Shown here one piece after another: positions 8,921 to 11,062 of a stretch of DNA of 64,000 nt (its first letter is position 1; each line of letters opens with the position of its first letter). The position numbers and the translations under genes were made by a program. Source of the stretch: Escherichia coli. Its GTDB lineage: Bacteria > Pseudomonadota > Gammaproteobacteria > Enterobacterales > Enterobacteriaceae. Below the pieces are notes generated by a model. That model made no database searches. It saw only the letters and a list, made by a program, of their open reading frames with translations, and was not told the DNA's origin. The stretch lies in the NCBI RefSeq assembly GCF_003334315.1, contig NZ_QOWR01000025.1. One strand, written 5' to 3'.

Positions 8921-11062
8921 TTATCCCGCCATTTTTAGGACTCGTACGCGGTAAACGCCGTCTTCGTCCTGTTTCGCGCCGTGAATATCCGTTTCAAAAC
9001 CGGGGTAATGTTGCCCGACGGAACAAAGCATCAGTAGAAAATCGAGTACTGTGCGGCTCTCTTTGGTCAGCATTTCTCCAGGCATCAACAGCGGTACGCC
9101 CGGTGGATAAGGCAGGATCATATTTGCCGATACTCTACCGACCAGTTGTTCCAGCGCAATGGTTTCTACTTCGCCTTTAATTTGTCGTTGCCATGCCTGA
9201 TGTGGCGTCATGATCATCTCCGGCAAAGTATCGAATGCCCGCAACATCAAACCGGGAAGATCGTGTTTACGAATCAGCTTATGGATCCCTTGTGCCAGAT
9301 CCTGAATACGCATATTGCGGTAGAAATCGGGATCTTCTGCATAGAGATCGGGTAGCATATTTTTGATCCGCAGGTTGAGATCGTAAGAGCGTTTGAATTC
9401 CGTCAACCCACGCAATAATCCCATTGCTTTGGTTTTATCGATGCCAATACTAAAGAGAAACAGCAGGTTATAAGGGCCGGTTTTCTCTACTACGATCCCA
9501 CGTTCGTCGAGGAATTTTGCTACCAGCGCCGCCGGGATCCCCTCCTCGCTCATATTGCCCTGCTCGTCCATCCCCGGTGTCAAAATAGTGACTTTAACCG
9601 GATCGAGAAACATATGATCGGCATCCGCATCGTTAAAGCCGTGCCACTGTTCGCCAGGCGCAACGGGCCAGCATTCGGCTTCATCCACCTGCGGCGGTTG
9701 CCAGATATCGAAAAACCAACCGTCAGACTCTTCCCGCAGCCGCTGGACCTCTTTGCGAAAATGCAGAGCTCGTTCTACTGAACGGTTAATCAGCCGTTTG
9801 CCCGGATTACCACGCAGCATCGCCGCCGCCGTCTCAACCGAAGCAACAATGGGATAACTGGGCGAGGTGGTGGTATGCATCATAAAGGCTTCGTTAAAGG
9901 CCTCTTCGTCATACTCGCCTTTAATGTGGATCAGCGAAGCCTGCGATAACGCCGCCAGCATTTTGTGGGTCGATTGCGTTTCGAAGATCACTTTTCCCGC
10001 AACACGCTCGCCGCTCATACCACTTTTACCCTGGTAGATCGGATGAAAATGGGTGTACGGCACCCAGGCAGAATCGAAGTGAATCGACGGGACATCCAGC
10101 GTCTGTTTGATCCAGTCGGTGTTGTAGAGCAAGCCATCATAGGTGGAGTTGGTGATCACCGCATGAACCGGCCATTGTGCTTGCGTGGTAGCAGCGACTT
10201 TCTCTTCGATGCTGTCGCGAGTAAATTCACGGCGCGGGATCCCACCAAGAATCCCCAACGCATTACGCGTCGGTTTCAGCCAGACTGGCACTACATCGTT
10301 CATCATCAACAGATGCGCCAGCGATTTATGACAATTGCGGTCGATCAACAGCGTACTGCCGGATGGCGCGGCGTACATACCCACAATTTTGTTCGACGTC
10401 GATGTTCCGTTGGTAACGATATAACTCTGTTCCGCGCCAAAAGTCCGCGCGATGTACTCTTCCGCTTCCAGGTGTGGCCCGGTGTGGTCGAGCAACGAAC
10501 CAAGCTCGGTGACCGAAATAGAGACATCAGCCTTAAGAGTATTCCCGCCGAAAAAATCATAAAACAGACAGCCAACCGGGCTTTTTTGATATGCGGTACC
10601 GCCCATATGCCCCGGCGTACAAAAGGTGTACTTCCGCTCTTTGACGTAGGTAAACAAGGCTTTCGTGAACGGCGGTGTAATGTTATCAAGATATTCGTCG
10701 GTGTACTGACGCATACGAATGGCGATATCTTCCGCCTGCCCCAGCGCATATTCAAAAAACCAGAGCGCCATCCGCATATCCTGCACGCTGACATCCATCG
10801 TCGAGTGGGTGTTGATGAAGGCATAAAGCGGGAGATATTCATTAAGCTGATTGATATCGCTACATAAATCGAGACTGTACTCATCCCAGTCAAAAATCAC
10901 GCCGCAAATTCGAGGGTTATGTTCGATAAATTTCAGCAAATCAACGCTGTTTTGTGGCCAGATAATCTGAAAGCCTTGCGCCACCAGCGCCGACTCCAGT
11001 TCTTTGATGGGCTCATCTTTATAAAAGACGCCATGCGGTCCCATAATGGCAATGATGTTCAT
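8921..11062 (-). CDS. ldcC: Constitutive lysine decarboxylase LdcC
   Basis: 713 aa ORF; Orn/Lys/Arg decarboxylase (PLP fold III) with PLP-lysine context STHKML; position downstream of accA. Confidence 0.94.
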   Translation of the reverse strand: MNIIAIMGPHGVFYKDEPIKELESALVAQGFQIIWPQNSVDLLKFIEHNPRICGVIFDWDEYSLDLCSDINQLNEYLPLYAFINTHSTMDVSVQDMRMALWFFEYALGQAEDIAIRMRQYTDEYLDNITPPFTKALFTYVKERKYTFCTPGHMGGTAYQKSPVGCLFYDFFGGNTLKADVSISVTELGSLLDHTGPHLEAEEYIARTFGAEQSYIVTNGTSTSNKIVGMYAAPSGSTLLIDRNCHKSLAHLLMMNDVVPVWLKPTRNALGILGGIPRREFTRDSIEEKVAATTQAQWPVHAVITNSTYDGLLYNTDWIKQTLDVPSIHFDSAWVPYTHFHPIYQGKSGMSGERVAGKVIFETQSTHKMLAALSQASLIHIKGEYDEEAFNEAFMMHTTTSPSYPIVASVETAAAMLRGNPGKRLINRSVERALHFRKEVQRLREESDGWFFDIWQPPQVDEAECWPVAPGEQWHGFNDADADHMFLDPVKVTILTPGMDEQGNMSEEGIPAALVAKFLDERGIVVEKTGPYNLLFLFSIGIDKTKAMGLLRGLTEFKRSYDLNLRIKNMLPDLYAEDPDFYRNMRIQDLAQGIHKLIRKHDLPGLMLRAFDTLPEMIMTPHQAWQRQIKGEVETIALEQLVGRVSANMILPYPPGVPLLMPGEMLTKESRTVLDFLLMLCSVGQHYPGFETDIHGAKQDEDGVYRVRVLKMAG

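Follow-up and report, generated by a model that had tools for sequence, protein, structure and literature searches.

How did ldcC, a gene for a lysine decarboxylase, come to stand between accA and tilS in Escherichia coli, and is the copy found there still a working gene? We address this for one stretch of E. coli DNA, the 64,000 nucleotides of contig NZ_QOWR01000025.1 (assembly GCF_003334315.1) that we call the window, which shows 30 mismatches in 64,000 bases against the closest complete genome, NZ_AP021895.1. The open reading frame in question is very probably the functional E. coli ldcC, an old, vertically inherited paralogue of cadA lodged in the gap between accA and tilS. The gene, the structure of its product, the missing antiporter partner, the accA-yaeR context and the origin by duplication of cadA are already published (PMC4832331, PMC6257575). 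The present check separates two ideas, that ldcC was inserted anciently, which is true, and that it was inserted recently, which is false; it adds that ldcC is younger than the terminator of accA, that yaeR is part of one inserted block with ldcC, and that a remnant of ldcC in Escherichia albertii can be documented. Beyond correct annotation the outcome is of little consequence.

Identity and intactness of ldcC

The coding sequence and the parts of its product, which depends on pyridoxal phosphate (PLP), map to the window as follows.

8921..11062, minus strand: ldcC coding sequence, 713 codons plus stop, intact (open reading frame, NCBIfam and PDB match)
10691..11023, minus strand: N-terminal wing domain PF03709, residues 14-124 (Pfam E = 7e-29)
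9428..10675, minus strand: PLP-binding major domain PF01276, residues 130-545 (Pfam E = 4e-197)
9962..9964, minus strand: codon for K367, the PLP Schiff-base lysine, inside the PF01276 domain
8963..9355, minus strand: C-terminal domain PF03711, residues 570-700 (Pfam)
8972..8974, minus strand: codon for K697, an LdcC-type signature (Y697 in LdcI), inside the PF03711 domain

The reading frame runs from ATG to TAA with neither a frameshift nor an internal stop. Its product scores 1527.8 bits against the NCBIfam LdcC model NF011928 (cut-off 968), and the models for its paralogues follow below: 1327.6 bits for the generic lysine decarboxylase model NF011929, 559.6 for arginine decarboxylase and 396.2 for ornithine decarboxylase, the last far under the cut-off of the NCBIfam ornithine decarboxylase models. 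Residues 1-710 are 100% identical to PDB 5FKZ ('lysine decarboxylase, constitutive', E. coli), and identity to the inducible enzyme LdcI is about 69% (PDB 3N75, 5FKX). An earlier interpretation of this DNA made from its letters alone, the sequence-only reading, had described an intact 713-residue LdcC free of frameshifts and proposed a comparison with the reference protein; the reading frame, the model score and the match to all 710 residues of the structure bear it out.

The catalytic lysine and the LdcC-type residue are likewise in place. K367 is invariant across 15 aligned sequences (13 LdcC and two LdcI). Both LdcI structures have tyrosine at position 697, a residue that none of the 13 LdcC orthologues shares. 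The window gene encodes lysine there, and among the orthologues lysine occurs in 10, with arginine, glutamine, threonine and methionine found once each. LdcC lacks the RavA-binding signature, Y697 being required for RavA binding and formation of the cage (PMC4832331). For the identical protein of strain K-12, lysine decarboxylase activity, a near-neutral pH optimum and weak RpoS-dependent expression are known (PMC6257575, citing Kikuchi 1998; PMC4832331). An antisense, GTG-initiated open reading frame of 300 codons within ldcC (9965..10867, plus strand) was considered and set aside, since nothing supports it as a gene.

Could ldcC be intact in sequence and yet cryptic, either silent or decaying? 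It shows low to average adaptation of its codons (0.49 on a measure like the codon adaptation index [CAI], against a window mean of 0.56), and nonsense, insertion sequence (IS) and frameshift alleles do occur sporadically in the species. Yet the protein is identical to an enzyme that has been purified and solved by electron cryomicroscopy, and the catalytic lysine, the Shine-Dalgarno sequence, the ATG and a conserved upstream motif are all in place. Moreover, the identical full-length protein is encoded on at least 1000 public contigs, as against three contigs with nonsense alleles, and this imbalance indicates purifying selection. We regard a cryptic gene as very improbable.

Gene order and inheritance at the accA-tilS junction

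The RefSeq annotation of a near-identical genome gives the minus-strand order rnhB-dnaE-accA-ldcC-yaeR-tilS, confirming the placement of ldcC between accA and yaeR/tilS that had been read from the sequence. The flanking genes are these.

11161..12120, minus strand: accA (acetyl-CoA carboxylase carboxyltransferase alpha); TIGR00513, 574 bits, and RefSeq annotation of the near-identical genome
8475..8864, minus strand: yaeR, a VOC/glyoxalase-I-like protein of 129 residues; NF008551, 289.9 bits, and annotation
7112..8410, minus strand: tilS (tRNA-Ile lysidine synthetase), the ancestral neighbour 3' of accA; NF007942, 806.6 bits

The accA-ldcC-yaeR environment is held across enterobacteria and has been used to re-annotate lysine decarboxylases (Kandiah et al. 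2016, PMC4832331), and the ldcC context has been described as strongly conserved (Carriel et al. 2018, PMC6257575). We located DnaE, AccA, LdcC, YaeR and TilS in each of 80 species-representative loci anchored on AccA, the best 80 of at least 599 matches; 27 belong to the Enterobacterales, and the 53 outgroup loci span the Alteromonadales, Vibrionales, Pasteurellales, Oceanospirillales, Chromatiales and Methylococcales. Between accA and tilS we found the following.

Non-Enterobacterales (n = 53): direct accA-tilS, 38 (median gap 86 nucleotides); other gene(s) in the gap, 6; ldcC, 0; yaeR only, 0; tilS not found or rearranged, 9, of which 5 on short contigs
Enterobacterales (n = 27): direct accA-tilS, 4; other gene(s) in the gap, 1; ldcC, 12; yaeR only, 9; no tilS or rearranged, 1

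The ancestral order is accA followed by tilS, and ldcC and yaeR are ancient additions made within the Enterobacterales, since the direct order prevails in 38 of the 53 outgroup loci and neither added gene lies between accA and tilS in any of the 53. The converse history, in which accA-ldcC-yaeR-tilS is ancestral in the Gammaproteobacteria and the short accA-tilS arrangement reflects repeated loss, can call on the deletion remnant in E. albertii, which demonstrates that loss does occur, and on the nine Enterobacterales that have yaeR without ldcC. The empty outgroup with its short gaps speaks against it, as does a published phylogeny that puts the origin of ldcC inside the Enterobacteriaceae (PMC6257575), and we give it scant credence.

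Addition within the Enterobacterales leaves the question of how many steps were taken. The 12 sampled loci with ldcC come from Citrobacter, Kluyvera, Pseudocitrobacter, two Enterobacter, Superficieibacter, Mangrovibacter, Acerihabitans, two Pantoea, a soil metagenome-assembled genome labelled Proteobacteria bacterium and the unclassified isolate RIT691. The plain accA-ldcC-yaeR-tilS order holds in 10 of them, extra genes being interposed in Superficieibacter and Acerihabitans. The nine loci with yaeR only belong to E. albertii, Klebsiella sp. BIGb0407, Yersinia artesiana, two Pectobacterium, Brenneria, two Rosenbergiella and Budvicia, and the four with direct accA-tilS to two Photorhabdus, Arsenophonus and a Pantoea symbiont; at this junction yaeR is more widespread than ldcC among the sampled Enterobacterales. 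One possibility is a joint arrival of ldcC and yaeR in a two-gene cassette, with later loss of ldcC from the yaeR-only taxa; the other is that yaeR came first and ldcC was inserted afterwards, in the space separating accA and yaeR. In nearly all carriers the two genes lie 45-100 nucleotides apart with no terminator between them, the deletion in E. albertii shows that ldcC alone can be removed with yaeR left intact, and ldcC occurs without yaeR only in the reduced-genome symbiont Pantoea sp. Nvir, all of which suits a cassette. Eight of the nine yaeR-only taxa, however, retain no remnant of ldcC, their accA-yaeR spacers are mostly short (about 70-165 nucleotides), and Budvicia is among them; furthermore, ldcC is a duplicate of cadA and yaeR is unrelated, so that a joint origin costs an extra step. 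We hold the cassette to be a serious but somewhat less favoured possibility.

Whatever the number of steps, nothing suggests that the addition was recent. The GC content of ldcC is 50.8%, and relative to the 54 other genes of the window its z-scores are -0.65 for GC content, +0.50 for GC content at third codon positions, +0.65 for the effective number of codons and -0.64 for the CAI-like index. By chi-square distance its codon usage is the 10th lowest among 55 window genes, and every composition measure stays within |z| < 0.8, so that the comparison of 8921..11062 with its surroundings, as the sequence-only reading had suggested, finds the gene indistinguishable from its 54 neighbours. Its borders, where the neighbours are accA and yaeR, hold only short, chance-level repeats and no integrase, IS, tRNA or mobility gene. 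Of 5426 complete E. coli genomes, 5421 carry ldcC, and in 5419 the coverage of the gene is at least 80%. Across 12 taxa, the identity of LdcC to its E. coli counterpart tracks that of DnaE (Spearman 0.86, p = 3.5e-4), and all 12 context-defined orthologues are nearer to E. coli LdcC (73-93%) than to LdcI (66-73%). Composition, borders, distribution and DnaE-tracking divergence thus give no sign of a recent insertion.

A recent, horizontally acquired single-gene islet of E. coli and its close relatives would find some encouragement in the terminator that flanks ldcC upstream, in the other cargo that the junction has taken in other lineages, and in the absence of ldcC from some Enterobacterales. 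It runs against the neighbour-like GC content and codon usage, the clean borders, the occurrence of the gene in 99.9% of complete E. coli genomes, a terminator older than ldcC, and the same position, with divergence tracking DnaE, in Citrobacter, Kluyvera, Enterobacter, Mangrovibacter, Pantoea and Acerihabitans. Such an islet has next to no probability and is effectively refuted already.

What, then, becomes of the ancient single-gene insertion into a housekeeping block that had been proposed? Set against the outgroups, ldcC is indeed an old addition; the signs of a recent event are lacking, and yaeR is part of the added block. The restriction to a single gene is probably too strict, since yaeR too is confined to the Enterobacterales between accA and tilS and no terminator precedes it. 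The proposal held that neighbour-like codon usage, together with universal presence in identical context, would argue against insertion. The result is mixed: codon usage resembles that of the neighbours and the context is identical where ldcC is present, and its presence is not universal. Such a comparison is able to exclude a recent insertion only, not an ancient one.

The gap has also received unrelated genes in several lineages, which argues that it is a permissive space between transcription units; it has the look of a recurrent landing site. Examples are listed below (locus numbers are ours).

L029 10964-11827, L030 11100-11960, L038 11021-11887 and L056 1946-2812: pdxY (pyridoxal kinase) after accA in Pasteurellaceae
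L018 13517-15555: SopB/IpgD-like type III effector and chaperone between ldcC and yaeR in Acerihabitans
L015 11406-12305: weakly ArtA-like toxin gene after accA in Yersinia artesiana
L012 11138-12895: gene for a secreted protein of 585 residues between accA and ldcC in Superficieibacter

The source of ldcC lies in the duplication of ldcI/cadA in the Enterobacteriaceae, at around the divergence of Sodalis (Carriel et al. 2018, PMC6257575); that paper places the event both 'just before the emergence of' and 'after the divergence of' Sodalis. Among its best 120 matches our homologue search returned only LdcC orthologues of at least 82% identity and none of the CadA diversity needed to date the duplication; we therefore take the origin from the published work, together with a small check by identity and a neighbour-joining tree. 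In that tree the branch leading to LdcI attaches beside Acerihabitans, which we take to be close to Sodalis.

Signals on either side of ldcC

The 98-nucleotide spacer between accA and ldcC and the two spacers farther downstream contain the following elements.

11117..11145, minus strand: intrinsic terminator of accA, AAAAAGGGTCAC-TTCG-GTGGCCCTTTTTT, with a GC stem, a UUCG loop, a T6 tail and flanking A/T tracts
11090..11096, minus strand: putative -10 element of an ldcC promoter, C-TATGAT followed by TAA, sigma-S-like; a conserved motif with predicted function
11068..11073, minus strand: Shine-Dalgarno sequence AGGAGG, 5 nucleotides before the ATG, read from the sequence and conserved in the intergenic alignment
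8865..8920, minus strand: ldcC-yaeR spacer, 56 nucleotides (fold -12.3 kcal/mol, z = 0.12)
8431..8460, minus strand: hairpin of 30 nucleotides in the yaeR-tilS spacer, with a GCCCGG...CCGGGC core and no T tract (from the fold)

The terminator upstream of ldcC had been counted as the gene's own. A strong terminator is indeed present (-16.5 kcal/mol, z = -3.96, with none of 200 shuffles as stable), but it belongs to accA and so is no evidence for an insertion. Hairpins followed by a T tract also lie 3' of accA in Rosenbergiella, Pseudoalteromonas, Haemophilus, Aeromonas and Aliivibrio, none of which has ldcC there, and equivalent post-accA terminators occur in many taxa with and without ldcC. 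Because it is present in taxa that lack ldcC, the terminator is a feature of accA older than ldcC and not the scar of an insertion. A generic promoter and terminator scan of 8300..12300 returned fewer sites than shuffled sequence and missed this terminator, apparently because its T tail is drawn into the stem by pairing between the A and T tracts on either side.

Just past the terminator, the motif CTATG(A/C)TTA, also written CTAT(G/C)NTTA, recurs about 27-35 nucleotides before the ldcC start in 11 of 13 aligned taxa, amid variable surrounding bases. In Superficieibacter it adjoins ldcC although the 585-codon gene intervenes between accA and ldcC. Sigma-S promoters are commonly credited with a cytosine at -13 and with TAA following the -10 hexamer. 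The conserved motif, taken with the reported RpoS induction of ldcC (PMC6257575), leads us to infer a weak promoter of the sigma-S type, which would give a leader of about 20 nucleotides carrying the AGGAGG. The start codon of ldcC is ATG in E. coli and GTG or TTG in eight of 12 orthologues, and the latter starts are consistent with weak translation.

The description of ldcC as a single-gene unit becomes doubtful on the downstream side as well. The 56-nucleotide ldcC-yaeR spacer has no terminator-like fold and none was called there by the generic scan, and for this reason ldcC is likely to be co-transcribed with yaeR. In the literature we found nothing relevant on operon structure or transcripts for ldcC-yaeR-tilS. 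The 64-nucleotide yaeR-tilS spacer is more structured (-23.6 kcal/mol, z = -2.37), and its hairpin, which precedes the essential tilS, may serve in RNA processing or stability or act as a signal related to Rho.

Three points weigh against the picture of an old, vertically inherited duplicate with a promoter of its own. The 80 loci are a sample neither random nor complete. The neighbour-joining tree includes only two LdcI sequences and cannot by itself date the duplication. Finally, scanning the minus strand of the accA-ldcC spacer for the sigma-70 consensus yielded no promoter; this is compatible with a weak or sigma-S promoter and is no proof of one.

Two observations concern the junction of accA and ldcC in other genomes. 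The protein call P0005, of 942 residues and with five member sequences, combines the AccA-type carboxyltransferase domains with a full LdcC (89% identity), and probably arose in the annotation of another enterobacterium as an artefact of read-through or of a frameshift. On public contig L086, the sequence 5' of the accA terminator stem (1-28) is unrelated to accA, which hints that a breakpoint or a junction with an IS lies within the terminator.

Loss of ldcC, its proposed role and its relatives

The sequence-only reading called ldcC a locus often variable or inactivated in Shigella-like lineages. The part concerning those lineages is right in part, with lesions in a limited set of them (S. 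boydii, S. dysenteriae and E. albertii); within E. coli the gene is core, as its presence in 5421 of 5426 complete genomes attests. In Table S1 of Feng et al. (2011, PMC3218036), ldcC counts as decayed in two genomes, S. boydii Sb227, through an indel at residue 347 (i347), and S. dysenteriae Sd197, through two indels and a stop; in S. flexneri 2a, S. flexneri 5 and S. sonnei it counts as functional. Caution is needed with single-indel calls such as i347, because the same table also flags indels in the essential genes dnaE (b0184; S. boydii, i1106) and tilS (b0188; S. flexneri 5, i144); such calls may include in-frame changes or sequencing errors. The three lesions of S. dysenteriae are more convincing than the single indel of S. 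boydii. An earlier gene list in the second supplementary file of that paper includes cadA and cadC; the list is presumably that of genes decayed in every Shigella strain. We had entertained the idea that the remark about Shigella confused ldcC with cadA, and dropped it, ldcC itself being decayed in two of the five Shigella references (PMC3218036). Two other leads also fell away: the 'ldcC' of an S. sonnei paper (PMC12795559) is listed with nupC and yqgA instead of accA and yaeR and so represents a different locus, probably a mislabelled decarboxylase gene, and in the supplements of PMC7373316 LdcC appears solely in a metabolic-model reaction list.

The clearest remnant lies in the E. albertii type strain NBRC 107761 (L004 10958-11313), where an internal deletion of about 1.95 kb, corresponding to window 9112..11058, has removed most of ldcC. 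The terminator of accA survives, as do the promoter motif and the Shine-Dalgarno sequence; CTG replaces the ATG, and the last 190 or so nucleotides persist out of frame; yaeR and tilS are intact. We found no mention of this deletion in the literature searched, and it is apparently unreported. In E. coli 602687 (NZ_CP189657.1; L087 478-5081), an ISEc22 element of the IS66 family splits ldcC into two annotated pseudogene halves, and in E. coli HT-948 (NZ_CP122317.1; L088 4500-6062) a rearrangement or deletion breakpoint directly follows accA, which is succeeded by yacL and acnB, so that none of ldcC, yaeR and tilS adjoins accA. The annotation of ldcC is split by a frameshift in one of 40 sampled E. 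coli genomes. Three public contigs with a D122N allele have distinct nonsense codons (Y14stop, K15stop and E21stop, at L084 ~3962, L086 ~145 and L085 ~3983), after which gene callers restart at GTG27 to give the same product of 687 residues; one NCBI record names Shigella sonnei. Such alleles are rare, three contigs as against at least 1000 for each of the full-length alleles.

If loss of ldcC were adaptive, the gene would be a second, weaker anti-virulence cadaverine locus beside cadA. Two decayed copies among five highly pseudogenised Shigella genomes could, however, be yielded by neutral decay, which fits the present loss data just as well. The joint claim that the gap after accA is a long-lived 'landing pad' of the Gammaproteobacteria, filled independently with different cargo from lineage to lineage, and that loss of ldcC in host-restricted Escherichia (S. 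boydii, S. dysenteriae, E. albertii) is adaptive seems unlikely to us.

The window has no cadB- or potE-type antiporter and no cadC among its 60 annotated features (RefSeq annotation of the near-identical genome), and here the sequence-only reading, which had seen no partner antiporter, was right. Its phrase 'acid-stress-type' does not hold, LdcC being the stationary-phase, biosynthetic, RpoS-induced paralogue (PMC6257575) and not the acid-inducible enzyme. We suggest the following course of events. An early duplication of cadA (ldcI) in the Enterobacterales would have given rise to ldcC, which came to sit, with yaeR, between the ancestral transcription unit of accA and its terminator on one side and that of tilS on the other. 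From then on ldcC would have been passed on vertically, becoming fully adapted to its host, with repeated loss in some lineages. The accA terminator would insulate ldcC from accA, and transcription would start at its own weak sigma-S-type promoter just past that terminator and probably continue into yaeR. The product is a decameric, PLP-dependent 'constitutive' enzyme that turns cytoplasmic L-lysine into cadaverine and CO2, presumably as a source of cytoplasmic cadaverine in stationary phase and not as part of a proton-consuming exchange of lysine and cadaverine like that of cadBA. Since an enzyme that supplies intracellular cadaverine runs no exchange cycle, it should need neither an antiporter nor the CadC sensor.

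Elsewhere in the window lie the following features.

29947-30056, minus strand: CssrA small RNA, between tsf and rpsB (Rfam, above gathering score)
4607-4683, minus strand: naRNA4, an RNA derived from a repetitive extragenic palindrome (REP), between yaeF and nlpE (Rfam, above gathering score)
30895-30981, minus strand: t44, upstream of rpsB (Rfam, above gathering score)
39852-39897, minus strand: thermometer in the HtrA/degP 5' untranslated region (Rfam, above gathering score)
63627-64000: IS1B-family transposase gene past folK, cut by the right end of the window; a programmed frameshift is annotated in the matching genome

Three known systems place the gene. LdcC of E. coli K-12 (b0186; 5FKZ) has the same accA, yaeR and tilS neighbours, the same three domains, K367 and K697, and 100% identity over 710 residues; at the protein level we detected no difference. 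LdcI/CadA of the cadCBA system (3N75, 5FKX) shares the family, the fold, the PLP lysine and the reaction, at 69% identity; it differs in having the cadB antiporter, the cadC sensor and Y697, whereas the window gene has neither cadB nor cadC and encodes K697. Regulation separates the two as well, LdcC being reported as RpoS-induced (PMC6257575) and LdcI/CadA as induced by acid and lysine. For speC and speF (OdcC and OdcI), the second such pair of a biosynthetic and an inducible decarboxylase in the Enterobacteriaceae, a similar history has been deduced from phylogeny, the biosynthetic copy stemming from duplication of its inducible, antiporter-linked counterpart at roughly the same branch (PMC6257575); the substrate is ornithine and the locus another, and the comparison made here is by NCBIfam scores alone.

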